Shown here piece after piece: positions 1,528-24,449 of a DNA stretch of 64,000 bases (positions are counted from its first letter, which is position 1; every line of letters begins with the position of its first letter). The notes beneath the pieces were generated by a model. The model did not search any database. It had not been told where the DNA came from and saw nothing but the letters and a program-made list of their open reading frames with translations. The stretch is from Naegleria gruberi (taxonomy: Eukaryota). The position numbers and the translations under genes were made by a program. The stretch lies in the NCBI GenBank assembly GCA_000004985.1, contig GG738873.1. One strand, given 5' to 3'.

Positions 1528-3429
1528 TTATTGGATTAAACATTTAGGTTTACCATTATTCGAAACTTGAGAATCCTGTAAAAGACAGCACTTTACAATC
1601 AATTCTTTCAATTCTTCAATTCCCACCATTTTCAATGAAGAAACTTCTGTAAATGATAAACATTTCAATTCTCTGGCTAGATTTTCTCCTTCCTCATACG
1701 AAACTATTCTTGGTTTTTCTTTCGAATAAAAATTTTCTCCTGGATTATAATTCCTCAAATCAGATTTTGTTCCCAACAGTAGAATTGGTGTTTTTGGTGA
1801 GTGAAGTCTTGTTTCCTCTACAAAAGTATCCTTAACTCGATGAAAGCTGTCTAAATTGTAGATACTGTACACTACAATGGTAAGATCTGGTGGAGGAGAG
1901 TAGGATAAATATCTAATTATTTCATAATCATATCCTCCAGCTGTATCTCTCATTTGGAGTGTGAATGTTTGATTTTTGAGAGTTACTGGAATTGGATGTT
2001 CACTTTCGAATACTGTTGGGATGTATTCTTGTGGAAATTCATTCATGGCTAGTACTATTTGCATTGAGGTTTTACCAACATTTGATGATCCAATTACGGT
2101 AATTCTAAATTCATGTAAATTATTTTCAGTTTCCTTGACAAGTTGTTGAATGTCTTGTTTTAAAATTTCCTGTTTTGGCTTGAATTGAAATTCAATGAGG
2201 GTTTTAATTCTTCCCAGTTCAATAATGTGATTTTTGGATTGTTGATAAAAAGTTCTTGAATGTAAAGCAAGATTGTAATAATTAACTCCACTACGTCGTG
2301 GGCTCACATTTTGTGATTTGCTTAACAAGAACTTCTTCCATAATTTGTCCTCAATGCTTAGTTGACTAAGTTGACAGTCTTTTCCAATCAATTGAACATT
2401 ATTGAGATCATGAACTGGTAAATATTCCAAAATCATTCTAAAAATGTCTTCGTTTAGCATTGATAACTTTCCATTATTTTCCTTTGCATTGATATTTGAG
2501 ATAGATTGTTGATATTTTCCTCCCCAGACAAAATAATAAACCACAAAGGTTAATTCGTGGGGTGTGTAAATGGTCAATGAATGGAAAACAGGTCCAAATT
2601 CAGAATTATTAAACACTCGAGAGAGAAAATGAAAGTTTTCTTCTCTCCACTCATTCTTCTCTGAGAGGTTTAAACTATGTAGAGTGGTAAAATCATGATT
2701 TGAATTACAACCACCAATCAAGAATAGCCTATCGTTTTCTATCCATGATTTGTGACCATATCTTGAAATATTTTGAGGAATTTTCTTGATTTTACAATTC
2801 AGATACTCAGATTCTGATAAATTTTCTAAATCAATTAGTAAAACGTCATTGATTGGAATATTTCCACTTTGTTTTCCACCTGAAATGATCAACAAATTAT
2901 TGTAAATCAGTGAGGAATGAAAGTATCTCCCCAAAATTTCATTATTTTTCCTATTTTTTAAAGACCGACATTTCCATTCGAAAGTTTTCAAATTTAATTC
3001 GAAAACTTGATTGGAAACAAATCCATCAGAATCATATCCACCAAATATAATCATGGAATCTTTGTAAATCTCAGCAGAATGTCCAAATCTGGGAGAAATA
3101 ACTTGATCATTCACAGTTGTTAGTTTCGTCCATTTTCCAACAGATTCCTTTGAATTAAATTCGAATTGCCAAACATCAGCTAGATATCCATTCGATTTAC
3201 CACCAAATAAAATCATTTTGTGATCATGGGAGATTGCAGAATGGAAATTTCTTGGAGATGGTTTTTCACCTTCCGATAAAATTATTGGAATGCAAGATTC
3301 TGATGAAATTTCATAAACTCTCAACTGATCAGAGTATTCGTTTTGATTGGCACTTTCGAGTAATCCACCAAAAATTAAAATATATTCATTGTTGATATTG
3401 ACGGATGTGTGACCGATGAGTTTTGACAT
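1528..3429 (-). CDS. Kelch-repeat beta-propeller, F-box and Rho/Rac-like GTPase in one polypeptide (633 aa)
   Basis: Single uninterrupted ORF with an A-rich context before the ATG. The N-terminal about 330 aa carry repeated kelch-type motifs (ILIFGG, MILFGG, MIIFGG, LIISGG, LFLIGG). An F-box-like segment follows (LNEDIFRMILEYLPVHDLNNVQLIGKDCQ...DKLWKKFLL). The C-terminal domain aligns to Rac/Rho: GSSNVGKT P-loop, YIPTVFE, DTAGGYDY, LLGTKSDLR. Confidence 0.8.
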   Translation of the reverse strand: MSKLIGHTSVNINNEYILIFGGLLESANQNEYSDQLRVYEISSESCIPIILSEGEKPSPRNFHSAISHDHKMILFGGKSNGYLADVWQFEFNSKESVGKWTKLTTVNDQVISPRFGHSAEIYKDSMIIFGGYDSDGFVSNQVFELNLKTFEWKCRSLKNRKNNEILGRYFHSSLIYNNLLIISGGKQSGNIPINDVLLIDLENLSESEYLNCKIKKIPQNISRYGHKSWIENDRLFLIGGCNSNHDFTTLHSLNLSEKNEWREENFHFLSRVFNNSEFGPVFHSLTIYTPHELTFVVYYFVWGGKYQQSISNINAKENNGKLSMLNEDIFRMILEYLPVHDLNNVQLIGKDCQLSQLSIEDKLWKKFLLSKSQNVSPRRSGVNYYNLALHSRTFYQQSKNHIIELGRIKTLIEFQFKPKQEILKQDIQQLVKETENNLHEFRITVIGSSNVGKTSMQIVLAMNEFPQEYIPTVFESEHPIPVTLKNQTFTLQMRDTAGGYDYEIIRYLSYSPPPDLTIVVYSIYNLDSFHRVKDTFVEETRLHSPKTPILLLGTKSDLRNYNPGENFYSKEKPRIVSYEEGENLARELKCLSFTEVSSLKMVGIEELKELIVKCCLLQDSQVSNNGKPKCLIQ

Positions 3430-3508
3430 TTTTTTAATAATTGTTTTCCTGTTAAATAGGTAAAGATGAAGGTTCTATCAACACATTCTTGTAAACATTT
3501 GTGTGAAA

Positions 3509-3760
3509 TCGGGTGTGGTATAGTGGTAGCATTCCAGACTGTCACTCTGGCGACCCGGGTTCAATTTGTTTTGTTAGTGTGTATGAGTTAGTAATGAATG
3601 ATATCGGTTAATCCTTATTTGGAAATTTCATTCCCGGTACCCAAAGTATGAACGAGAGTTTTGACTATGTGAAATCAAATTGTTTATTGCTCGAGTGCCT
3701 TTTGATCAAGAAGTTACAGTTATGAATAATTATCAAGAAATTCAATTCCCGGCACTCGAG
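3509..3760 (+). pseudogene. tRNA-Asp(GTC) gene interrupted in the T-loop by a ~180-bp insert. The 5' part is 3509-3566 and the 3' part is 3741-3760.
   Basis: Positions 3509-3566 fold as acceptor 5' strand TCGGGTG, a D-arm, an anticodon stem-loop CCAGA/CTGTCAC/TCTGG (anticodon GTC) and a T-stem CCGGG plus TTCAATT loop, but no closing strand follows. The missing piece, TTCAATT-CCCGG-CACTCGA-G, lies at 3741-3760 and pairs perfectly with both the T-stem and the acceptor stem. Both junctions carry TTCAATT. Confidence 0.6.
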
Positions 3761-4159: not shown

Positions 4160-4232
4160 GCCCGTCTAGCTCAGTCGGTAGAGCGCAAGGCTCTTAACCT
4201 TGTGGTCGTGGGTTCGACCCCCACGGTGGGCG
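4160..4232 (+). tRNA. tRNA-Lys (anticodon CTT)
   Basis: The 73-nt sequence GCCCGTCTAGCTCAGTCGGTAGAGCGCAAGGCTCTTAACCTTGTGGTCGTGGGTTCGACCCCCACGGTGGGCG has a canonical cloverleaf with anticodon loop CTCTTAA. It is near-identical in layout to eukaryotic tRNA-Lys-CTT. Confidence 0.9.
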
Positions 4233-4412: not shown

Positions 4413-7400
4413 CTAGAAATTTTGAATGTCAGCACTTGTTGGTCTCATACTTGGTTCCTTTGAGACCATAGTCACAATAAAATTGCAAAGCTTCTCAGAG
4501 TAACCTCTTGATATCAAGTGTTCCATTGTTCTGTCCAACACCACTTCTTCCTTATCGTATAATAATTGAGCTGTAATGTTTAAATCTAAGGAATCATTTG
4601 CCATGGCCTGAATGAGTGAAACTCCAAGTGAAAATATATCAGCACTATAACTGTATTTTCTAGAAAAGACCTCAGGTGCCATATATTGCAATGTTCCTGC
4701 AACTGAATTTTGAGTTTCTCCAGTTTCCTTTGCCTCTCCATAATCACCAATAACCACTTGGATTTCATCCAATTCACGGTCCAATTTACTATAGAAAATA
4801 TTACGTGGTTTGATATCTCTGTGAACAATTAGTTTCTCTTGGTGAAGATAGTTCAAACCATCTCCAAGTTGTTTCATGATGGAGATGATCATCTTCTCAG
4901 AGACAATCTTTCCATCTTGTTTCAAATCTTTCAAGGCATGTTCCAAGTCGCCTTCATAAAATTTCATTACAATACAAATAGATTGAATAATCTGTGCTTC
5001 AAAGAATTCATAAACTTCAACCAGATTTGCATGTCTGTATGAAAGTGTTTTGGAACATTCATCAATAATTTTAGAATGTCTGCTTTGATCATAACTAATA
5101 GTCTTGATGGCAACTGGCATGTCATTCTTTTTAGAATCCAAACAGAGATAACATTTACCAAATGCACCCTGACCAATAACTTGTTGAATCTTGTATCTAT
5201 CTTTGAGCAAAGAATGATCTGTGTTTTGAGTAGAAGAAGTAGTAGTTGTGTTAGTATTGGAAGTATTGGAAGACAATTGGTACAAGGAATTGTTAAAGGT
5301 ATCGCTTGGGAAATCTGAAGTCACTGATGTACTATTATTGGCTGTTTGAGTGACATTTTCATCAATGGTTGTTATCATTTCAATTGGTTTTTCCTTAGTA
5401 ACCAGTGGTTTGCTTTTCTTCTTCTTTAATTTCACAATGAGACAGATGGTGACAATGATTGCAAGCAATATTAACAATACCAATAATGTTAAACCCACAA
5501 CCAATCCAACAATCAATCCAATGTTAGAATTAACTGGAGTAGTCACTTGTCCATTCTTGGATGCAAGTGGAGAGACATAGGTAGGAGGAACAATTCTATT
5601 CTCACAACTCAATCCACTATATCCTTCCAGACATGAACAACCATTACTTGATGTACATGTTCCATTTCCACTACAATTTTTCACGGCATCACAAGAGAAG
5701 AGGGAACAATCGAGACTTCCCTTCCATCCACTAGTGCATGAGCATGTATTATTACTCACACAGAAACCATGTCCTGAACAGGCATTCAATGTTTCACATG
5801 AGAAGAGAGAGCAATCAGAACTTCCTCTCCAGCCAGAATAACACGAACAATTGTTCATTACACAATCTCCATGTCCACTACATTGATTCTGTAGGTCACA
5901 ACCAAAAGAGATTGCTCTCACCTTTCCATTACTTGTGTCAGCAATGAAAATTTTAGATTCATCAGCAGAGAGAGCTACTCCCATTGGTCCATAAAATTGA
6001 GTTTCCAAAGGGTGCAAATTCTCTCCATTGTATCCATACAGTGGTGCAGTACCAGCAATGGTTATCAAAGTTCCATTCTTAAATAATTTCCTTATGGCAT
6101 GGTTTTGGGAATCAGAAATCAATAGTTCATCATTGGATAAAATGGCAAGACCAGCAGGATATCTCAACATTGAATTAACACCACTCAAATTCTCCCCACT
6201 ATATCCATCCACCCCAGTTCCTGCAATGGTAATGAGGGTTCCATCATTGAGAATTTTTCTCACTCGATGGCCTTCATACTCTGAAAAAATAACTTCATTA
6301 TTAGAGGTCAGTACAATTCCATATGGATTATTAATATTGGCACTAGTTGCTAATAGCCCATCTCCATTGTAGGTAGAAGTACCGGTACCAGCTACAGTAA
6401 TGATGGTCTGATTGAAAAACACTTTTCTAATTCGATGATTTCCAGAATCGGTAATGTACAAATCTCCATTTGTGGATCTGGCAATTCCTTTTGGTAAATT
6501 TAAATGAGCACTAGTAGCAGGAATGTTATCAGCATTGTATCCAGTAGTTCCAGATCCAGCTTTTGTTATTACAATTCCACTAGAAGATATGAGATATTTC
6601 ACAGTTGACGAATCAACAAAATAGTACTCCCCTACATTGGGCACGAGTGGAGATCTGGGTGAAATATAACTTGGAGTAATGGTTGTGATAATTCCACCGA
6701 GTGAAATCTTTCTCAATCTATAATTTCTTGTGTCGGCCACAATAACCTCATTATTTGGAGCGACAGCAACCGATTCTGGACCAAAGAGTTTTGCCTTCAC
6801 TGCCTCAATATTATCACCATTGTAGCCGAGATTGGAACCTGTTCCAGCAACAGTAGTGATGATATTGTTTGTGTTAATCTTTCTGACTCTGTAATTTCCA
6901 CCATCGGAAATGAAAATCTCCCCACTCGAGGATATAGCAATGCCTCTTGTGACTCTGAACATGGCATTGGATGCCAATTGATTGTCTCCAGCATAGCCAT
7001 ATGATGATCCAGCTATTAATGTTGCAACTCCATTCGTTTGAATCATGTACACTTTATCTGAAACAGTGACATAGAGAGCACCAGTGATTGGAGATATTGC
7101 CATTCCATTGACTGTATTAGTCTGGCCAGAGAGTTCAAAAGTAGTGAACATGACTACACTGGTGCCATTATTGAAAACCTTTCTAATCTTGTCATATTCT
7201 CCAATGTAAACTTCTCCACTATTAGAGATGGCAATGGAAGTGGGGAAGTTTAACTGTGCATTAGTTGCATCCTGTACCACAGTGGATGTATCTGTTCCAC
7301 CTCCAGCGAATGTTCTAATGATACCATCCGTATACGAAACTACACGAATTTTGTTATTTGAGGTTTCTGCAATATATAAATTATTATTCACAGGAGAGAT

Positions 7401-7961
7401 GACAATTCCACCTGGTGTATTCAATAGTGCATTGGTAGCGACTCCATCATCACCGATACTCCCTGGTACACCAACTTGACCAGCGTATGTGCTAATCAAA
7501 TTACTAGATAATATGACCTTTCGAATAACATGACTATTCGTATCAGACAAGTACATGACATCACTATTCTGAAAAGCAAGTGCACTAGGATAATTGAAAC
7601 GAGCCAAAGTTGCTATAGTTGTCGTGACAGAACCAGGAATACCCACACCAGCAATTGTTTTAATTTTACCACTACTTGCCACTACTTGTCTCACTCGACA
7701 ATTTATCTTGTCAACTATGAAAATGTCACCATTGTTACTTGGAGAGAGTGCAAGACCATCAGGTATGGCAATTTCTGCCTTGGTAGCATCAATGTTATCA
7801 CCATTGTAACCATTGGGATAACTACCTGCTATGGTTTTTACATGGTATAAAGATTGACCGTGGACAATTGGTTGGGCAGCAAGAAACACCAAGTGAAACA
7901 AAAACAACAATGGTAGCAAGAATGTTGAGCTATTAGTGTTGTTGAGTTTCAATTTGTCCAT
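4413..7961 (-). CDS. Receptor-like protein kinase (1,182 aa) with signal peptide, NHL-repeat propeller, EGF-like Cys-rich modules, a transmembrane helix and a C-terminal Ser/Thr kinase domain
   Basis: Continuous ORF with an A-rich start context. The N-terminus MDKLKLNN...LLPLLFLFHLVFLAA looks like a signal peptide. There are more than 15 NHL-type repeats (YNGDNI.A..A.L..P.G.A......IYIAD..N.RIRK.). Three CSGHG.C....C.C..GW.G..C modules look like EGF repeats. A TM segment (GLIVGLVVGLTLLVLLILLAIIVTICLIV) is followed by a kinase with GQGAFGK, VAIK, HRDIKPRN, DYG and MAPE motifs. Confidence 0.8.
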   Translation of the reverse strand: MDKLKLNNTNSSTFLLPLLFLFHLVFLAAQPIVHGQSLYHVKTIAGSYPNGYNGDNIDATKAEIAIPDGLALSPSNNGDIFIVDKINCRVRQVVASSGKIKTIAGVGIPGSVTTTIATLARFNYPSALAFQNSDVMYLSDTNSHVIRKVILSSNLISTYAGQVGVPGSIGDDGVATNALLNTPGGIVISPVNNNLYIAETSNNKIRVVSYTDGIIRTFAGGGTDTSTVVQDATNAQLNFPTSIAISNSGEVYIGEYDKIRKVFNNGTSVVMFTTFELSGQTNTVNGMAISPITGALYVTVSDKVYMIQTNGVATLIAGSSYGYAGDNQLASNAMFRVTRGIAISSSGEIFISDGGNYRVRKINTNNIITTVAGTGSNLGYNGDNIEAVKAKLFGPESVAVAPNNEVIVADTRNYRLRKISLGGIITTITPSYISPRSPLVPNVGEYYFVDSSTVKYLISSSGIVITKAGSGTTGYNADNIPATSAHLNLPKGIARSTNGDLYITDSGNHRIRKVFFNQTIITVAGTGTSTYNGDGLLATSANINNPYGIVLTSNNEVIFSEYEGHRVRKILNDGTLITIAGTGVDGYSGENLSGVNSMLRYPAGLAILSNDELLISDSQNHAIRKLFKNGTLITIAGTAPLYGYNGENLHPLETQFYGPMGVALSADESKIFIADTSNGKVRAISFGCDLQNQCSGHGDCVMNNCSCYSGWRGSSDCSLFSCETLNACSGHGFCVSNNTCSCTSGWKGSLDCSLFSCDAVKNCSGNGTCTSSNGCSCLEGYSGLSCENRIVPPTYVSPLASKNGQVTTPVNSNIGLIVGLVVGLTLLVLLILLAIIVTICLIVKLKKKKSKPLVTKEKPIEMITTIDENVTQTANNSTSVTSDFPSDTFNNSLYQLSSNTSNTNTTTTSSTQNTDHSLLKDRYKIQQVIGQGAFGKCYLCLDSKKNDMPVAIKTISYDQSRHSKIIDECSKTLSYRHANLVEVYEFFEAQIIQSICIVMKFYEGDLEHALKDLKQDGKIVSEKMIISIMKQLGDGLNYLHQEKLIVHRDIKPRNIFYSKLDRELDEIQVVIGDYGEAKETGETQNSVAGTLQYMAPEVFSRKYSYSADIFSLGVSLIQAMANDSLDLNITAQLLYDKEEVVLDRTMEHLISRGYSEKLCNFIVTMVSKEPSMRPTSADIQNF

Positions 7962-9618: not shown

Positions 9619-9671
9619 TAATTTTAATGGTTTGTAAACTTGGAGATTGAACTGACAGTTTGTTAAAAAAA

Positions 9672-12600
9672 ATGATAATTGACCAACACCAAACTGCACC
9701 TCGTTGGATTTGCAACAAGTGCCAAGGATTCATCGATAGGGGAACAATCCGATACGTCAATACTGATGAAAAGGACTTTGACTTGTGTGAAAATTGTTAT
9801 CACTGGTGTTGGGAACAGTATCAGAAGAGAAAGCAACATAATACAAATTCACAATTTAATTCTCTTGATGATGATGGTGATGATGATGTTGGGAATAACA
9901 CGGAAAATAACAAAATATTGGACATGTTCTGTAGGGATTTGGAATTTATTGTACCAACCAAGTATCACTATTCTGAAATGAAAGGACGAATTAAAAGTTC
10001 CGATCGGTTTAATAGTTCTCTGTTTAGATCATTTGTTGAATATTCACTCAATCCTTGCTTTGGATTGTTGAAACAAGATGATGGTCCCTATCATTTTCAA
10101 ACCTATGAACAGGTATTTCATTTGATTTGTTGCATCAGTATTGGATTAGATCAGATTTTGAAACCATTAATACGAGTGGGAAAGAGACAATTTGTATCAA
10201 TATGTGGAAAGAATAATTTGTATTGGTATTTGAGTGATTATGCTTGTTTCTTTAGGGGGTTTGTGATTGCCCCCATTCATTTTGCTCAATCATTTGAGGA
10301 GACGAAATATTGCATTGAACTGACAGAGAGTCAAGTTGCTATTTGTACTGAAGAAATGTTAGATTTATTCATTAGAATTACCAAAGAGTTGGATATTGTG
10401 AAATATATTATTGTAATGGATGATACAGAATCAAAATCAAGAGGAAAATTTACCAATCAAAGAGGAACACAAGAAATTGAAATTATTCCAATGAATGACA
10501 TTATTGACGCTGGAAAATCAATATTGTGTGAATATTTGAATGAAAAGAACAAACCAAGAACGAATCCATATCCAGAACATTATGAAAATCACGAGACAAT
10601 CCTTGTGACTCCACCTCAGGACAAGTACGATCCTAGAAAGATGTGGATTGGAGTGGAACATGAAGAATTTATTCTAAATAGGTTGGATAATGAGGAGGAT
10701 CTAGTGACTCTTGTTTTCACAAGTGGATCCACTGGTATTCCAAAAGGAATCATGATGAGTGATAGAGCTTTGAGAAAGGAAGTACTCAGTTTAAGGATAA
10801 AAGATCCTAAAGTTCGTTTCTCTTTTTGTCCACTCGCTCACATGAGTGATAGAAAATACACCCTATTGGCCATGTGTAATGGAGCCAGAGTTGGAATATT
10901 TACTAGAGAATTTGTTCACATCTTTGAGGATATTCAAAACTGCAAACCAGTTGTAATTGCATCCACTCCAAGATTATTCAATGTGCTGTACGATGAGTTT
11001 AAGAAAGTAGTCGAATTGGAAAGAATTCGTTGGCTTTCTTCCACTGAAACTGGGAAACCAAAAACTGAGAAGGAACTTGAGGAAAGAACCATGCTTGACT
11101 TTCAATACATGCTTGGTGGGCGTGTTCAATCAATTATTCTTGGAGGGGCTTCTTCTAGCCCACAATTAAGAGAATTTTTGGCAAAATGTTTCCAGTGTAA
11201 AGTAACAGATGGTTTTGGAATGTCTGAAGCTGGAGGAATTATGAATAACAATCGACTCAACACTAATGTCGAATACAAGTTGATTGATGTTCCTGAATTG
11301 AGCTATTTCACAACAGACAAACCTTATCCGAGAGGAGAACTTTGTGTCAAGACAAATTACATGTTTATTGGATATTATAAGAATGAAGAGCTCACTAATA
11401 ATGCACTGGATGAAAATGGATGGTTACACACCAACGATATTGTTGAAGAATTAGGACCAAATCAAATCAGAATTATTGACAGACTGAAGAATATTTTCAA
11501 ATTGAGTCAGGGTGAATTCATAGCACCTGCCAAGATTGAAGATGCTCTCACTACCTCTAAATTTATTTTCCAAGCTTTTATTTATGGCAATGTGACAAAG
11601 AGCTACTTGGTTGGTGTCATTGTTCCCAACAAAACAGTTTTAAAACAGTTTGCAATTAAGGAAGGAATTATCAAACCATCAGCCGATCACCATCTCCTAA
11701 ATGAAGAAGAGAAAGAAGTATTGGCAAATAATGAGCTGATCAAGAAAGCTCTATGTGAAGAGATTGAGAAAGTTGCTGTAAATTGTTCACTTTTGTCTTA
11801 CGAAGTTCCAAAAGATTTTATCATTGAATTTGAACCTTTTAGTGAGAAAAATGATTTACTAACCTCCTCTATGAAGGTTAAGAGATTTGGATGTGAAATG
11901 AAATATAAGGAACAATTGGAGACACTCTATGAGCATGTAGATAGAAATTACAAGAGAAAGTTGGACGAAGATTTGATTCGTGAATTGTTAGTGAACTCCT
12001 CATCAGGCTCAGAGGAATCTGCAGATGGAAATATGAAAATTATTGACAGTCTTCATGCAGTTAAATTTTCTGGAATTATGAAACAAAAATTCAACATTGA
12101 CATTCCACTTTCATTGATATTTTCTCAAACGGATAGGAATGTGGAAAGTGTAGTGAGTAGAGTTTCAAACTTTGTCACAAAAGGCCAAACTAATCAGCAA
12201 TCGTATGACTGGAAAAAGGATATTCTCTTACCACAAGAACTTCTCGATGAAATTACTGACATTACTTCAAAAGGAAAGCAGAAATTCAATAAGATATCAA
12301 ACCTAAAGAAGGGTATTCTTCTGACTGGCTCAACTGGATTTTTAGGTGCCTTCCTATTGAGAGATTTATTGGAGAATTTACAAACAGCTCAGGAGCATGT
12401 GAAAATCTATTGTTTGATAAGAGAAAAGAATCAGCAACACAGTTTATTCACTAGATTGAAGAAACATCTTGTAAAATTCAATATCTGGAAAGATACTTAT
12501 GAAAGGAGAATATCTGTCATTAGGGGAAATTTACAGGATGAGAATTTAGGTCTCTCTCATGAGGAATTCAACAAATTGGCTGGAGATGTTGACATTATTT

Positions 12601-13604
12601 ACCACAATGGAGCATATGTCAACTCAGTCATGTCGTACTCTCAATTATTCTCTTCCAATGCTGGATCTACGTACTATTTATTGAAACTTGCTTGCCTGTC
12701 ATCAAAATTGAATATCCAAAATGATGGAGATTCCTTAACACCAATTATTCTCGTTTCAACTGTTGGTGTTGTACAATCTGCGTTGTCAGAATTTGATCTA
12801 CCAACCAGAAAATCTCAAGTTAATGATAACCCTCAGGAAACTAAAGAAATGATTAGCAATCATGTCGATCAAGTCATTGGTCAACTGAAACCAATTATTG
12901 AAAAAGCAGCTGGGTATAACAGCACCAAATTTATTGCAGAACAATACATTCAACAAGCAAGGTTATTGGGATATCCCGGTGCCATCTTTAGACCAGGAAT
13001 GATTGGAAGTGATACTGAGAATGGAGTTTCGAATTTAGAGGACTGGGTCAATAGGTTGATTCTGGGATGTTTCGAATTGGGTTGCTTCCCACAAACCAAA
13101 AAATCTCTCAATGTCATTCCTGTGGATATTATTTCAAGAGTGATTGTGGAATTGACACAGAATGAGAATGTATTCATTGGTACTTTACAATCCAATCCAA
13201 ACTATTTGATTTATGAGGTGGCTAATCTTTCTCAATATGAAATTCAAATTGATAATTTACTTGGCATCGCTGCCACAACTCTAGCGAAATTGCTAAACAA
13301 GAAACCAATGGAAATGGTTAGCTACACTAAGTGGAAACAAATACTGAATGAGAGAACATCAACCGAAGAAAACGAAATGTTATTGATTTTGAAAACTCTC
13401 TTCAAATCAGATACGGAATTTCTAAAAAGCATAAACAAACTCCAAGACAACCACATTCAGAAAATCATTGAAGTTCTTTCTAGATCAGAAAGCATACAGT
13501 GCAGAGAATTAGTTCCTAACAAAAATCTAAACCAAAACTATCTTGAAAAACAAGCTCTATACCTAGTCCAGAGTCTCAAGAAGAAATTGGGCGAAAATTT
13601 ATAA
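9672..13604 (+). CDS. ZZ-type zinc finger, long-chain acyl-CoA-synthetase-type adenylation domain, phosphopantetheine carrier (PCP) domain and NAD(P)-dependent thioester reductase domain (about 1,310 aa)
   Basis: Uninterrupted ORF; the first ATG at 9672 has an A-run before it. The ZZ finger is CNKCQGFIDRGTIRYVNTDEKDFDLCENCYHWCWEQY. AMP-binding motifs are LVFTSGSTGIPKG, GYYKNEELT..GWLHTNDI, IIDRLKNIFKLSQGEFIAPAKIE and LLTSSMKVKR (ACSL-type). The carrier motif is GNMKIIDSLHAVKF...IDIPLSLIF (DSL serine). The reductase domain has LLTGSTGFLGAFLL (Rossmann fold) and GYNSTKFIAEQ (YxxxK). Confidence 0.85.
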   Translation: MIIDQHQTAPRWICNKCQGFIDRGTIRYVNTDEKDFDLCENCYHWCWEQYQKRKQHNTNSQFNSLDDDGDDDVGNNTENNKILDMFCRDLEFIVPTKYHYSEMKGRIKSSDRFNSSLFRSFVEYSLNPCFGLLKQDDGPYHFQTYEQVFHLICCISIGLDQILKPLIRVGKRQFVSICGKNNLYWYLSDYACFFRGFVIAPIHFAQSFEETKYCIELTESQVAICTEEMLDLFIRITKELDIVKYIIVMDDTESKSRGKFTNQRGTQEIEIIPMNDIIDAGKSILCEYLNEKNKPRTNPYPEHYENHETILVTPPQDKYDPRKMWIGVEHEEFILNRLDNEEDLVTLVFTSGSTGIPKGIMMSDRALRKEVLSLRIKDPKVRFSFCPLAHMSDRKYTLLAMCNGARVGIFTREFVHIFEDIQNCKPVVIASTPRLFNVLYDEFKKVVELERIRWLSSTETGKPKTEKELEERTMLDFQYMLGGRVQSIILGGASSSPQLREFLAKCFQCKVTDGFGMSEAGGIMNNNRLNTNVEYKLIDVPELSYFTTDKPYPRGELCVKTNYMFIGYYKNEELTNNALDENGWLHTNDIVEELGPNQIRIIDRLKNIFKLSQGEFIAPAKIEDALTTSKFIFQAFIYGNVTKSYLVGVIVPNKTVLKQFAIKEGIIKPSADHHLLNEEEKEVLANNELIKKALCEEIEKVAVNCSLLSYEVPKDFIIEFEPFSEKNDLLTSSMKVKRFGCEMKYKEQLETLYEHVDRNYKRKLDEDLIRELLVNSSSGSEESADGNMKIIDSLHAVKFSGIMKQKFNIDIPLSLIFSQTDRNVESVVSRVSNFVTKGQTNQQSYDWKKDILLPQELLDEITDITSKGKQKFNKISNLKKGILLTGSTGFLGAFLLRDLLENLQTAQEHVKIYCLIREKNQQHSLFTRLKKHLVKFNIWKDTYERRISVIRGNLQDENLGLSHEEFNKLAGDVDIIYHNGAYVNSVMSYSQLFSSNAGSTYYLLKLACLSSKLNIQNDGDSLTPIILVSTVGVVQSALSEFDLPTRKSQVNDNPQETKEMISNHVDQVIGQLKPIIEKAAGYNSTKFIAEQYIQQARLLGYPGAIFRPGMIGSDTENGVSNLEDWVNRLILGCFELGCFPQTKKSLNVIPVDIISRVIVELTQNENVFIGTLQSNPNYLIYEVANLSQYEIQIDNLLGIAATTLAKLLNKKPMEMVSYTKWKQILNERTSTEENEMLLILKTLFKSDTEFLKSINKLQDNHIQKIIEVLSRSESIQCRELVPNKNLNQNYLEKQALYLVQSLKKKLGENL

Positions 13605-20720: not shown

Positions 20721-23700
20721 ATGCTACCATCATATCTTGCCAACTCTCCTGCCAGTGAAAATAACCAAGAAACTAATGTGGAATTCAATGAACAACACTC
20801 TCTAAAGAGAAAGAAAGAAGAAATAGACAAGGAATTGAAAGCTTGGGAGATTTTTGATGAAGTTAACAAGTACAAAGATGAACCATCTTTCAAGAAGGCC
20901 AAAAAAGCACTCAACCAGACTGAATGTTGTCCTGCAGGTCGTAACTTGATTGATAATGTCTTTATGCAAGATTGTGAATCATCTGATAATGATTCTTCCT
21001 CAGATGATGACCAAAGTAATGGTGCTTATAAGAAATCATGTTTAGGATTGTACAAGAGTGCAATTCCAAGCAAGGCATCCTGTATTATGGATACTTCTGA
21101 AGAATTACCATCAATCATTATCCCAGCTAGAAGAAGAAGAAAGAGTGCCAATACAAATAGTCCAACTTCACCAACTATTCCATCAAACGTTACTAATGAA
21201 CAAGTAACAACATTGGCTAATGTTTCTTCTGCACGTTCTGCAAAGAAATGGAACTCTTTCGAAATGATGCCTCACGGTATTTTGGTATTCATAATGTCAT
21301 ACATTTCTCAACCAATGATCATTCATGCAATGATGGCTGTTTGTAAGAGATGGTACCAAATCTCCAAGTTCAGTACACTTTGGAAGAGAATTGATTTTAA
21401 TGGTTCATTCAAGATCAAATCAATGAGTGATGTTGTTGGTTTCCTCGAAGACTTTACCACTTTAAAGATTTCTGACATGAGAAAGACCTATGCATTAGGT
21501 TCTACTGTGCTCATGGAATCTTTGGGAGGATTAGGTCAAAAGGAAGTTATTTACAATGTCCAACAATATGAATATGGTCTTTCTCTCCAAAAACAAGAAC
21601 AATTAGGTATCTATAAGAATGGTGGAGTTTTACTCCCACCAAAGAAATCCAGAATGCCTCACCTTTTTGGTGAAATCATTTTACCTGCTTCTTGTTCAAA
21701 CCTCTCTGTTGAAACTTTTGAAAAGTTGAAAGAGGTTTATCCATCCTTGTCTAAATTGGTTCTTCCAATGTGTTCTACAATTTCCACAGTTTCTAATACT
21801 GGTGCATTTCCTATCAATGCTGATAACAATTCCAGAATTCAATTCAATACTGAAGACATTGAAAACAGTATTTCTGATTCTGTACTATTGCAAATTGCCA
21901 AGATGCCATATTTGAGCTATCTTAAAGTATCTACTCATCACAAGTTAACTGATCAAGGTTTGAATGAATTTTCCATTCTTTCAAAGAGACTTGAATCCAT
22001 TGAACTTGACTATTGTTTGGGTTTGACTCAGCAATCACTCTTGCATCTTGTAAAGAATAGCAAACATATTAACACTATTAGTGCTCTCAGCAATGGAAAC
22101 ATTGTTTTGGGAGATCAAGAACTTGTAGAATTATCCCAATATGGTTCTCATTTAAAAGAATTGAGAATTGATGTTTCAAATATTTCTCTTCCATCCTTCG
22201 CTACCTTTATTAAGGGTTGCAGAAGACTCCAAACTTTATTTATTAGAGGTCTTGATTGTATTACTGATAAGACCCTCGATGTTATCTTTGCCGAGCTCCG
22301 TTACATTCGTAATATTACAATTATTTGTGAGAGCCCTGAGAAGACTGCTACAAACAAAATCTTCTCTACAACAATTTCTAGCACCACCTTAGAATCCTTC
22401 CAAATTACTGGTTGTGAGACTTTGAACATTTCCTTTGATCATTGCACCAACTTGAAGAAAGTATCTATTGACCAATGCAAGAGCTTGACTGGTCTTCAAA
22501 TTTCTAACTCCTTACTTGTTGATGAACTAAAATTCAGAAGTAGTAACATTGCATATGTGAACCTTTCACAATTGATAAATTCATTGCCAAAGTTGAGAGA
22601 GTTTGAACTCTTTGATTGCCAATCAGGAGAAACAAACAAGACTGTTACTTTCAATTCTGATATTATGAGAAAGATTATTATTCTCATGTGTAACGACATT
22701 ATCAACCTTGAAGTTTTATGTAGTAATCTTAGATCTATGAGCGTTGATTTGTGTGCCAACATTGAAAAGTTGATTCTCAAGAGTCCAAAGTTGGAAAATT
22801 TACAAATGTTTGCTCTTCCTCAATCAGCTACTCCAAAGCTCAAACATTTATTTGTTGAAAGTGATCATATCCAATCTTTGAACTTGCAAAAGATTCTCTC
22901 ACTCGAACAAATTGCAGTCAAGTGCAAGTCTTTGGATTCACTCAATGTTTCCAACCTTCATCAACTCAGAAGATTGGAAACTGGACCATGTCCAAAGCTT
23001 GAAAAGTTAGCCCTAGGAAGTGTCTTCCTCTTATTTGATGATCATCTTGTATCCAATATTATTAGCAAGTGTCCAAATATTAGTATGTTGAGCATTTCCA
23101 ATAGTGTATCATTGAATGATGTATCACTTGGAGTTTTGTGCAACAATTTGCCAAACCTTCAAGCTCTTGTCATTTCCAATTGCCAACGTTTGTGGAATGT
23201 CAACATTCAATCATCTGTACTTAAAGGTATCCAAATCTCAGATTGTCATCTCCTCAAGTATTTAAACTTGAAGAGTGAAAATCTTAACAAGTTATTCATT
23301 AGAAATTGTCCAAATGTTGAAGATTCTACATTTGATAACCTCTCTGCCTTCAGTCCAAATATCAAGTTTGTAGAGTTGGTTAATTGTAGTATGCTCAAGT
23401 CACCACATCTCAAGCTTCCACAACTTGTCGATCTCCATTTCAGAGAATGTGCCCAATTAGAAGTTCCAACCATTACTTCTGAATATTTGAAAAAGTTGTT
23501 GATTGTTTCTTGCACAAAGTTTTCTCACTTTAATGCTCAATCAGCAACCCTCTCTGAAATTTTACTCTCTGAATGTCCAAACTTGAACGAAGCTAATCTT
23601 ACAAAGAGTCTTTCCCAAACCGAAAACATTCAAGCTATTGTTTTCGATAAGTGTAAGGCCCTTAGAGCTCCTCAATTGAATCTTGATAACCTCAAGCTCG

Positions 23701-24449
23701 TTAGATTTACCTCATGTAATAATCTTGTCAATCCAAAGATTAATATTAGAGGTAATTTGTCTGTTCTCTCCTTCCAACATTGTGATAACATCAAGATTGA
23801 AAAGTTGAGCACCAACATTACTGGACAAAATATTGATAATATTGAAATTACTGAATGCAAGGGAATGACCAAACTCTCTTGTGATTTACCAACTAAGAGT
23901 TTGAGTGTTAGTGGATGTTCCAAACTTTCCTCTCTCACTCTTTCTCAAACCATTCAAACAATCCTTGTTGAAAAATGTCAAGCTCTCTGTACTATTCAAT
24001 GCCCACAAGAATGCCGTGTGACTGAGCTTAAAGTTAAGGATTGTGAACAATTCTCCTCTGTTCAATTTAGTGGACCAAATCAAGATATGAAGATTCTTGG
24101 ATTTTCAAGATGCCCACGTTTATCTGATATGTGTTTAGCATCCATGTTAAGCAAGTGCCAAACTCTTGAAAAGGCAAGATTAAGTGCTTGCGGTCTTGCT
24201 CGTCCATTTATTAATCATGCCAATTTATCTACTTTACATATTTCTCATTGTCAATACTTGGAAAGAATGAGATTAAAATGTCCAAAGCTTATTACCCTCA
24301 AACTCAATGATTGTCAAGCTTTAAATTCTGTTGTATTTGCTGAAGCTTCACCTGAGCTTAAGAATGTAACATTGAAAGGGCTTTCTGTCTGTGCATCTGA
24401 TAGAGAACTTTTGATGAGATGTTCCAACTCTAGTGTTGCCTCACAATAA
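20721..24449 (+). CDS. F-box / leucine-rich-repeat (FBXL-type) protein, 1,242 aa
   Basis: Uninterrupted ORF. A canonical F-box (MMPHGILVFIMSYISQPMIIHAMMAVCKRWYQISKFSTLWKRIDF) is followed by more than 25 cysteine-containing LRRs (C..L..L.L..C..ITD). Confidence 0.85.
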   Translation: MLPSYLANSPASENNQETNVEFNEQHSLKRKKEEIDKELKAWEIFDEVNKYKDEPSFKKAKKALNQTECCPAGRNLIDNVFMQDCESSDNDSSSDDDQSNGAYKKSCLGLYKSAIPSKASCIMDTSEELPSIIIPARRRRKSANTNSPTSPTIPSNVTNEQVTTLANVSSARSAKKWNSFEMMPHGILVFIMSYISQPMIIHAMMAVCKRWYQISKFSTLWKRIDFNGSFKIKSMSDVVGFLEDFTTLKISDMRKTYALGSTVLMESLGGLGQKEVIYNVQQYEYGLSLQKQEQLGIYKNGGVLLPPKKSRMPHLFGEIILPASCSNLSVETFEKLKEVYPSLSKLVLPMCSTISTVSNTGAFPINADNNSRIQFNTEDIENSISDSVLLQIAKMPYLSYLKVSTHHKLTDQGLNEFSILSKRLESIELDYCLGLTQQSLLHLVKNSKHINTISALSNGNIVLGDQELVELSQYGSHLKELRIDVSNISLPSFATFIKGCRRLQTLFIRGLDCITDKTLDVIFAELRYIRNITIICESPEKTATNKIFSTTISSTTLESFQITGCETLNISFDHCTNLKKVSIDQCKSLTGLQISNSLLVDELKFRSSNIAYVNLSQLINSLPKLREFELFDCQSGETNKTVTFNSDIMRKIIILMCNDIINLEVLCSNLRSMSVDLCANIEKLILKSPKLENLQMFALPQSATPKLKHLFVESDHIQSLNLQKILSLEQIAVKCKSLDSLNVSNLHQLRRLETGPCPKLEKLALGSVFLLFDDHLVSNIISKCPNISMLSISNSVSLNDVSLGVLCNNLPNLQALVISNCQRLWNVNIQSSVLKGIQISDCHLLKYLNLKSENLNKLFIRNCPNVEDSTFDNLSAFSPNIKFVELVNCSMLKSPHLKLPQLVDLHFRECAQLEVPTITSEYLKKLLIVSCTKFSHFNAQSATLSEILLSECPNLNEANLTKSLSQTENIQAIVFDKCKALRAPQLNLDNLKLVRFTSCNNLVNPKINIRGNLSVLSFQHCDNIKIEKLSTNITGQNIDNIEITECKGMTKLSCDLPTKSLSVSGCSKLSSLTLSQTIQTILVEKCQALCTIQCPQECRVTELKVKDCEQFSSVQFSGPNQDMKILGFSRCPRLSDMCLASMLSKCQTLEKARLSACGLARPFINHANLSTLHISHCQYLERMRLKCPKLITLKLNDCQALNSVVFAEASPELKNVTLKGLSVCASDRELLMRCSNSSVASQ

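Follow-up and report, generated by a model that had tools for sequence, protein, structure and literature searches.

A conserved Kelch-F-box-Rho fusion in Naegleria gruberi and other amoebae: a candidate membrane-anchored ubiquitin ligase receptor with a built-in atypical GTPase

INTRODUCTION

Can a Rho-type GTPase be part of the substrate receptor of an SCF (Skp1-Cul1-F-box) ubiquitin ligase? This question is raised by a gene of the heterolobosean amoeba Naegleria gruberi, located in a 64,000-nucleotide stretch of contig GG738873.1 (assembly GCA_000004985.1; hereafter, the window). A first-pass annotation, made from the DNA letters alone, read in its product a Kelch propeller, an F-box, and a Rac/Rho-like G domain with noncanonical catalytic residues, a combination that it did not recognize from described families. 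To our knowledge, Rho domains built into ubiquitin ligase adaptors are known only from the RhoBTB proteins, which act with Cul3, and their regulation is poorly understood. Here, we describe the Kelch-F-box-Rho fusion as a conserved and apparently undescribed amoebal family, ask which of its traits are shared by all members and which are peculiar to N. gruberi, and weigh what the protein might do.

RESULTS

A single reading frame encodes the fusion

Kelch, F-box, and Rho modules share one polypeptide, as the first-pass annotation had proposed. The open reading frame (ORF) is the published N. gruberi gene model itself, an intron-less frame at positions 1528-3429 (-) of the AT-rich window (G+C, 31-40%). 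Its 633-residue product is 100% identical, over the full length, to the NCBI/UniRef entry "rho family small GTPase [Naegleria gruberi]" (P0001). From its N terminus, the protein consists of a Kelch propeller (residues 1-308), a divergent F-box (approximately 321-366), a linker of about 70 residues, a Rho G domain (438-616), and a CAAX end. In Pfam, Kelch families cover the first 300 or so residues (best E = 2e-41), and residues 443-613 match the Ras family (E = 3e-29). A chance origin is impossible because the frame spans 633 codons and carries three independent domain matches. Only the F-box of this protein is weak, and its support comes solely from homologues. A prokaryotic or viral origin of the gene was rejected, since the product exactly matches an N. 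gruberi protein; the window is accordingly nuclear DNA of this species.

The fusion is conserved in amoebae

A family was recovered when 1.84 billion cluster representatives were searched exhaustively with a profile and when a second search was started from the N. lovaniensis relative; purpose-built hidden Markov models sorted its members into architectures. Thirty-six proteins have the order Kelch-F-box-Rho (type A) and 12 the permuted order Rho-Kelch-F-box (type B); a profile-based homologue search with word-based candidate selection added no further family members. The 14 relatives in a 15-sequence full-length alignment have their Kelch, F-box, Rho, and CAAX elements colinear with those of the N. 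gruberi protein. The search of related genomes that the first-pass annotation had suggested thus recovered the fusion in Heterolobosea, Amoebozoa, and environmental data. Among the Heterolobosea, N. gruberi has one copy, Naegleria lovaniensis three (besides two F-box-Rho proteins lacking Kelch), Naegleria fowleri two, and Willaertia magna two. The amoebozoan members come from Stenamoeba stenopodia (type A), Balamuthia mandrillaris (two), Pelomyxa schiedti (many, of types A and B), and Physarum polycephalum (type B), and many soil and water metagenome contigs also encode members. For Stenamoeba, the source is a de novo (Trinity) transcript whose complete ORF runs across all three domains, and the Physarum (permuted) and Arcella (BTB version, described below) proteins derive from transcriptomes. 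Separate transcripts for the Kelch/F-box and GTPase parts, which the first-pass annotation had named as evidence that would refute a fusion, are thus indirectly contradicted by the continuous N. gruberi frame, by the full-order Stenamoeba transcript, and by the Physarum and Arcella transcriptome proteins.

Database labels of the members are generic ("rho family small GTPase," "F-box domain-containing protein," "Rac1," "RhoG-like"). Literature searches on Rho, F-box, and Kelch in the context of Naegleria and Amoebozoa found no description of the family, which may have been mentioned earlier in reviews of Rho evolution. The claim that the combination belongs to no described family stands as far as the papers searched go, but the protein is not unique: it belongs to a family with 36 type A and 12 type B proteins and a BTB-bearing form, and the idea of a Rho domain in a cullin adaptor is known from RhoBTB (PMC4931677). 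The Kelch-F-box-Rho fusion is apparently a conserved, undescribed amoebal family, the N. gruberi sequence itself being already public.

Several variants accompany the main architecture. The family is greatly expanded in Pelomyxa, where the permuted P. schiedti proteins P0006, P0097, P0192, P0194, and P0199 lack a CAAX box and several end in a conserved (D/E)WIFVP motif. Short F-box-Rho proteins without Kelch (P0110 and P0123) occur in N. lovaniensis; they have the LN-type F-box described below and a CAAX box, and P0123 keeps Gln61 (Ras numbering). Cochliopodium P0011 is a Kelch-F-box protein without Rho. Furthermore, Arcella intermedia (P0184, P0186, P0190, and P0193), Pyxidicula operculata (P0198), and environmental samples (P0185 and P0195) encode Rho-Kelch-BTB proteins with an N-terminal Rho domain, an LZTR1-type propeller, a C-terminal BTB domain, and, despite the N-terminal position of Rho, a CAAX box at the far C terminus.

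The propeller is of the LZTR1/KLHDC type

Pfam assigns the propeller to Kelch_KLHDC2_KLHL20_DRC7 (2e-41) and Beta-prop_ATRN-LZTR1 (4e-31), and the signature Gly-Gly, Arg, and Trp positions are kept in the N. gruberi protein. Its best sequence match in the PDB is the Kelch domain of LZTR1, both for the single protein (5e-22) and for the family profile (2.9e-65); with the latter, the dynein heavy-chain Kelch (2e-55), KLHDC3, KLHDC10, KLHDC2, and FBXO42 follow. An AlphaFold prediction from a 3-sequence alignment was discarded (mean predicted local distance difference test [pLDDT], 51). With a 17-sequence alignment, the Kelch and Rho domains were resolved and the F-box and linker were not, so that the model gives no verdict on the F-box fold. 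Confidence in the propeller is high (pLDDT of about 90 over residues 1-305), and the six-bladed fold has target-normalized TM-scores of 0.69 to 0.76 to KLHDC2, LZTR1, and KEAP1. Foldseek ranks KLHDC2 first, then the LZTR1 Kelch bound to KRAS(GDP), MRAS(GDP), and RIT1(GDP), and below these FBXO42, KLHDC3/10, and KEAP1; the LZTR1 entries superimpose with root mean square deviations of 3.1 to 4.0 Å. Every one of these Foldseek matches serves a cullin-RING ligase as substrate receptor.

The nearest homologues that share only the Kelch part with the N. gruberi protein carry two propellers and end in a RING finger. Judged by similarity, the LZTR1-type Kelch is thus joined, across proteins, to three E3 ligase modules: F-box, BTB, and RING. 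This propeller type and the CAAX box both go beyond the first reading of the sequence.

An atypical Rho domain with a predicted prenylation signal

The Rac/Rho-like nature of the G domain was borne out, the best PDB match being Cdc42 (4e-32), followed by TC10, Rac1, and RhoA. A Rho insert between G4 and G5 is present, with residues ~556-580 aligning ungapped to the Cdc42 insert region. All nucleotide- and Mg2+-binding residues are kept (G447, G452, K453, T454, T472, D495, G498, T554, K555, D557, and S597), and the SAK motif is present in an SSL form. The motifs GSSNVGKT and DTAGGYDY are where the first-pass annotation had seen them, and positions 12, 13, and 61 are noncanonical, as it had noted by comparison with Rnd and RhoH. 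The domain therefore lacks the canonical cycling signature (Gly12 plus Gln61), and the remainder of its switch II is changed as well (EIIRYLSYSPPPD versus DRLRPLSYPQTD). By sequence, G-domain similarity, Rho insert, and CAAX box place the protein in the Rho family, and the replacement of Gly12 and Gln61 makes it an atypical, Rnd/RhoH-like member.

Not all of these oddities have the same reach. In the same searches, Gln61 is kept in 5 of 43 F-box-linked Rho domains but in 52 of 75 plain Rho matches (Fisher P = 7.6e-10). Its commonest replacement is Pro (DTAGPEDYDRLRPLSY), with Gly in N. gruberi and a few others. The Gln61-to-Pro signature (DTAGPEDYDRLRPLSYPQ) recurs in the Rho-Kelch-BTB proteins of Arcella and Pyxidicula, and we read it as a shared derived character tying the F-box and BTB versions. 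A neighbor-joining tree of Rho domains places 18 of 22 type A sequences in one clade and N. gruberi on a long branch; it is crude, with no bootstrap support and obvious long branches, and so lends weak support only, Gln61-to-Pro being the better character. Gly12, by contrast, is kept in 31 of the 36 type A relatives with a readable P-loop. Therefore, the loss of Gln61 is a family trait, whereas the GSSNVGKT P-loop and the additional switch II changes are peculiar to N. gruberi. Of the catalytic deviations that the first-pass annotation singled out, then, that at position 61 extends to the family and that in the P-loop does not.

A Cys at position -4, mostly within CxLQ, is found in 28 of 36 type A proteins, in 14 of 18 Rho-Kelch(-BTB) proteins, whose Rho domain is N terminal, and in none of type B. 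Architecture, Gln61 loss, and CAAX box are conserved across two eukaryotic supergroups. Since these features, a Rho domain devoid of Gln61, an LZTR1-type Kelch, and a C-terminal CAAX box, co-occur across Heterolobosea and Amoebozoa and in both F-box and BTB versions, the pattern speaks for a functional unit kept together by selection and against a chance shuffling of domains.

The segment between propeller and linker is a divergent F-box

The first-pass annotation had made the F-box depend on profile searches, and here the outcome is divided. Homologous segments aligning column for column with that of N. gruberi pass Pfam thresholds in N. lovaniensis P0002 (6.5e-7), the environmental protein P0004 (1.7e-11), Pelomyxa P0006 (1.5e-12), and Cochliopodium P0011 (5.8e-11). 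A profile of five F-box segments, N. gruberi included, retrieves FBXW7 (5e-11), FBXL5, beta-TrCP, and Skp2 (4e-9) from the PDB. A profile built from heterolobosean segments only retrieves FBXO3 (2.3e-5), beta-TrCP (0.007), and FBXL5 (0.008), with seven of its eight matches being F-box proteins. The Pfam score of the N. gruberi segment itself remains below threshold.

Amoebozoan members have a canonical LPxE...VC(K/R)xW F-box at the same place. In contrast, an LN start and a two-residue insertion at the VC(K/R)xW site are common to all Naegleria and Willaertia members. This heterolobosean variant is well conserved: mean column identity in its alignment is 56%, and L21, D45, and W48, as well as the variant-specific N10 and D12, are invariant. 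Because the aligned homologues are significant and both the family and the heterolobosean profiles retrieve F-box proteins, the segment is a genuine but divergent F-box homologue.

The window also encodes a canonical F-box-leucine-rich repeat protein of 1,242 residues at 20721-24449 (+), about 17 kb away. Its F-box (residues 183-226; F-box-like, 2.2e-7) reads MMPHGILVFIMSYIS...VCKRW...LWKRI, keeps both the LP and Trp hallmarks, and is followed by leucine-rich repeats. N. gruberi therefore uses ordinary F-boxes besides the LN type.

Features of the locus

Table 1. Features of the Kelch-F-box-Rho gene and of its product
Feature	Residues	Position in window	Strand	Remarks
Complete coding sequence	1-633	1528-3429	-	Single ATG-to-stop ORF at these coordinates; 633 codons plus stop (stop codon, 1528-1530), uninterrupted
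Kelch beta-propeller, six-bladed, LZTR1/KLHDC type	1-308	2506-3429	-	Pfam, PDB sequence matches, AlphaFold, Foldseek
Divergent F-box (KLSMLNEDIFRMILEYLPVHDLNNVQLIGKDCQLSQLSIEDKLWKK)	321-366	2332-2469	-	LN replaces hallmark LP; two-residue insertion at conserved Trp site
Linker	367-437	2119-2331	-	Poorly conserved; length varies among homologues (alignment gaps); partly helical in model
Rho-family G domain with Rho insert	438-616	1582-2118	-	Pfam Ras, 3e-29; Cdc42, 4e-32; pLDDT, ~80-90
P-loop GSSNVGKT	447-454	2068-2091	-	Ser449 at Ras Gly12 position, Asn at 13; Lys and Thr intact
Switch II DTAGGYDY	495-502	1924-1947	-	Gly499 in place of catalytic Gln61
G4 guanine-specificity motif TKSD	554-557	1759-1770	-	Intact; K555 and D557 invariant in 3- and 15-sequence alignments
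CAAX box CLIQ, predicted prenylation signal	630-633	1531-1542	-	C630 invariant in alignments

In the AlphaFold model, the linker has low pLDDT up to residue ~412 and a helix at 393-410.

The surroundings of the gene hold several other features. An intact tRNA-Lys(CTT) lies at 4160-4232 (+), about 730 bp upstream of the fusion gene and on the opposite strand (ARAGORN; Rfam tRNA, 66 bits). Closer to the gene, 80 to 140 nucleotides upstream of its ATG, a tRNA-like fragment at ~3505-3570 (+) (TCGGGTGTGGTATAGTGGTAGCATTCCAGACTGTCACTCTGGCGACCCGGGTTCAATTTG) resembles the 5' three-quarters of tRNA-Asp(GTC): D arm, anticodon arm, and T loop can be made out, but the T stem lacks its 3' half and the acceptor strand is missing. 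The fragment, which may be a truncated tRNA remnant, is called neither by ARAGORN nor by Rfam (E ≤ 1). Directly downstream of the fusion gene, a 371-residue ORF (140-1255 [-]) specifies a protein with a hydrophobic N terminus and many N-x-S/T sites and with no Pfam match at E ≤ 1e-5. A 1,182-residue receptor kinase-like ORF (4413-7961 [-]) combines a signal-like N terminus, many teneurin-type NHL repeats, teneurin-like EGF repeats, a transmembrane stretch, and a C-terminal protein kinase; its ectodomain is an animal-like combination in a heterolobosean. Finally, a 1,314-residue ORF at 9660-13604 (+), with TTG as the first listed start, joins an AMP-binding adenylation domain to a C-terminal NAD_binding_4 reductase, a layout matching carboxylic acid or alpha-aminoadipate reductase-type enzymes.

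DISCUSSION

The domain identities, their order, and the states of the motifs are direct observations, as are the conservation of the architecture and the pairing of this kind of propeller with BTB or RING in other proteins. As to what the protein does, we lean, by a modest degree of belief, toward a membrane-anchorable SCF substrate receptor with a built-in Rho-type GTPase module. The N-terminal six-bladed propeller of LZTR1/KLHDC type would capture a substrate, and the adjoining F-box would dock the receptor onto Skp1-Cul1-Rbx1. The Rho domain would hold guanine nucleotide and Mg2+ through the P-loop Lys and Thr, Thr35, Asp57/Gly60, TKxD, and SSL. It would remain GTP bound without cycling, as in Rnd, RhoH, and RhoBTB (PMC4974793); such a locked state is expected because the catalytic Gln has given way to Gly (to Pro in most relatives) and, in N. 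gruberi, Gly12 is missing too. The CAAX box (CLIQ, predicted to be farnesylated) could then hold the ligase on a membrane, where Rho-binding partners might be engaged or the adaptor gated. A gating role would follow the RhoBTB model, in which autoinhibition of the BTB/Cul3 module comes from the GTPase domain. What we infer from these features is that the protein binds Skp1, binds GTP without hydrolyzing it, becomes prenylated, resides at a membrane, and captures a substrate.

By sequence, no solved structure is closer to the propeller than LZTR1, a CUL3 receptor that acts on prenylated small GTPases; however, LZTR1 is built with two BTB-BACK units and has neither an F-box nor a GTPase domain of its own. 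Membership of the LZTR1 family was rejected because Pfam finds no BTB or BACK domain despite the similar propeller. FBXO42 and the plant F-box/Kelch (FBK) proteins are SCF substrate receptors that combine the same two modules, and FBXO42 is among both the sequence and the fold matches of the propeller. In FBXO42, the F-box (~21-55) precedes the Kelch region (91-328), and in plant F-box/Kelch proteins it is likewise N terminal to the propeller, whereas the N. gruberi protein has the reverse order plus Rho and CAAX.

The nearest precedent for a Rho domain in a ligase is RhoBTB. Like human RhoBTB1-3 and Dictyostelium RacA, the N. gruberi protein would place an atypical Rho, independent of guanine nucleotide exchange factors and GTPase-activating proteins, in a large multidomain cullin-RING adaptor; RhoBTB3 also ends in a CAAX box, and both RhoBTB and Kelch-F-box-Rho occur in Amoebozoa (PMC4931677, PMC8305917, PMC4974793). 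The GTPase domain of RhoBTB folds onto the first BTB domain and keeps Cul3 from binding until it is released by a ligand, and RhoBTB proteins are also substrates of their own ligase (PMC4931677). RhoBTB nevertheless recruits Cul3 through two BTB domains and has no Kelch or F-box, whereas the N. gruberi protein has an F-box (Skp1/Cul1), a Kelch propeller, and a C-terminal Rho. With no BTB by Pfam and with Rho at the C terminus, the N. gruberi protein was rejected as a member of RhoBTB and is regarded as an analogue. The Rho-Kelch-BTB proteins of Arcellinida have an architecture intermediate between the two. The G domain itself resembles those of Rnd1-3 and RhoH, which are prenylated and have substitutions equivalent to Gly12 and Gln61 with intact nucleotide motifs. 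Rho proteins locked in the GTP form by such substitutions are regulated by expression, localization, and turnover rather than by cycling (PMC4974793). Unlike these single-domain animal proteins, the Kelch-F-box-Rho family mostly combines Pro61 with Gly12, and only N. gruberi alters positions 12 and 13.

Several observations weigh against an SCF receptor, most of them concerning the N. gruberi copy. Within the whole protein, the Pfam F-box at 322-345 is below threshold (E = 0.12, 12.7 bits), and the isolated segment, at 15.8 bits (E = 0.014), still falls short of the gathering scores that set the Pfam cut-offs (20.5 bits for F-box and 24.3 for F-box-like). Asn stands for the hallmark Pro, the conserved Trp is absent, and KDCQL is found where VCKxW is expected. 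AlphaFold does place three helices where an F-box would have them (327-335, 339-343, and 361-372), with pLDDT below 50. For all these reasons, Skp1 binding, predicted from F-box homology, is not assured in N. gruberi. In addition, identity to the N. lovaniensis relative reaches only 31%, while the compared N. lovaniensis and N. fowleri members share 44 to 49%, and constraint on the N. gruberi copy is possibly relaxed. Degenerate F-box and fast evolution together speak against a strict SCF role in this species. At the level of the family, Kelch before F-box reverses both the order of FBXO42 and that usual in plant F-box/Kelch proteins. Moreover, Rho occurs at either end of the Kelch-F-box unit, with type B lacking CAAX, and a single fixed allosteric mechanism is therefore unlikely.

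These points nourish other readings. The protein might be an atypical Rho no longer connected to SCF, its F-box having drifted in Heterolobosea (LN) into a helical connector or another interaction motif and its propeller serving as an effector or localization domain of a constitutively active, prenylated GTPase. The insignificant F-box score of the N. gruberi protein, the low AlphaFold confidence over this region, and the Pro-to-Asn change and Trp-replacing insertion in all Naegleria and Willaertia members would fit, but heterolobosean members conserve the LN variant strongly, and its profile still retrieves F-box proteins (seven of eight PDB matches, best 2.3e-5). The amoebozoan members, with a canonical F-box at the same place, and the BTB or RING partners that this Kelch type has elsewhere also count against a loss of ligase function, and we consider it unlikely. 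Drift may instead have affected the gene as a whole, leaving a relaxed and possibly nonfunctional remnant with an odd P-loop and switch II. The deviations in these two motifs are indeed unique to N. gruberi, the branch is long, identity to the N. lovaniensis relative is low, and a single member was recovered here versus three in N. lovaniensis and two in N. fowleri. Yet a frame of 633 codons is intact in an AT-rich genome, where stops would build up fast, and the nucleotide/Mg residues, the propeller Gly-Gly/Arg/Trp positions, and the CAAX Cys have all been kept, making decay very improbable. An artefactual gene model that reads neighboring Kelch/F-box and Rho genes as one, a general possibility in draft genomes, was considered and rejected. 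The frame is continuous with no stop between domains, the same order recurs in at least eight genera and many environmental contigs, Stenamoeba Trinity transcripts carry the complete ORF, and the permuted and BTB versions are found in Physarum and Arcella transcriptomes, so that this explanation is effectively excluded.

A specific variant of the favored SCF receptor would be a self-recognizing switch, in which the propeller binds a small GTPase in a nucleotide-dependent manner. The bound GTPase could be the protein's own Rho domain, as a pseudosubstrate or an autoinhibiting ligand, or else a free GTPase of Rac/Ras type on the membrane to which the CAAX-anchored Rho domain brings the propeller, and the ligase would degrade small GTPases or itself. 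By analogy, the Kelch of LZTR1, the best sequence relative of the propeller, has been solved with the GDP forms of KRAS, MRAS, and RIT1, according to the entry titles, and CRL3-LZTR1, a cullin-RING ligase (CRL), binds GDP-bound RIT1 (PMC9068208). The repeated attachment of Rho to the same Kelch type, with F-box or BTB and at either end, points in the same direction, as does RhoBTB, autoinhibited by its own GTPase domain and a substrate of its own ligase (PMC4931677). The likeness to LZTR1 is not exclusive, however: dynein Kelch, KLHDC3, KLHDC10, and KLHDC2 score within 30 to 80 bits of it, and KLHDC2 tops the Foldseek ranking. LZTR1 also favors GDP-bound targets, whereas the Rho domain here is predicted to be GTP locked. 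Recognition of a GTPase by the propeller is thus a lead, not a result, and we deem this variant rather unlikely.

To conclude, the Kelch-F-box-Rho family would realize the RhoBTB-like idea with an F-box (Cul1) and an LZTR1-like propeller, as a CRL1 counterpart of RhoBTB. The underlying principle of a Rho domain in a cullin-RING adaptor was already known; its CRL1-type version with an LZTR1-like propeller is what is new. LZTR1 controls the stability of RAS-family proteins and is mutated in Noonan syndrome and schwannomatosis. The N. gruberi copy departs most from the canonical pattern. As a compact natural system, the family lends itself to the study of how a GTPase domain in a locked state may gate a cullin-RING ligase or direct it to its site. 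Its members include proteins of the pathogens N. fowleri and B. mandrillaris, with no direct human counterpart. A bolder proposal, which we regard as quite unlikely, is an ancient modular "GTPase-in-ligase": an LZTR1-type propeller that reads the nucleotide state of small GTPases, is wired interchangeably to Cul1, Cul3, or RING, and is permanently tethered to a hydrolysis-dead, prenylated Rho serving as membrane address and gating pseudosubstrate. If this were true, amoebae would control the turnover of membrane Rho and Ras proteins by a self-contained switch, and the family would expose the ancestral logic behind RhoBTB and LZTR1.

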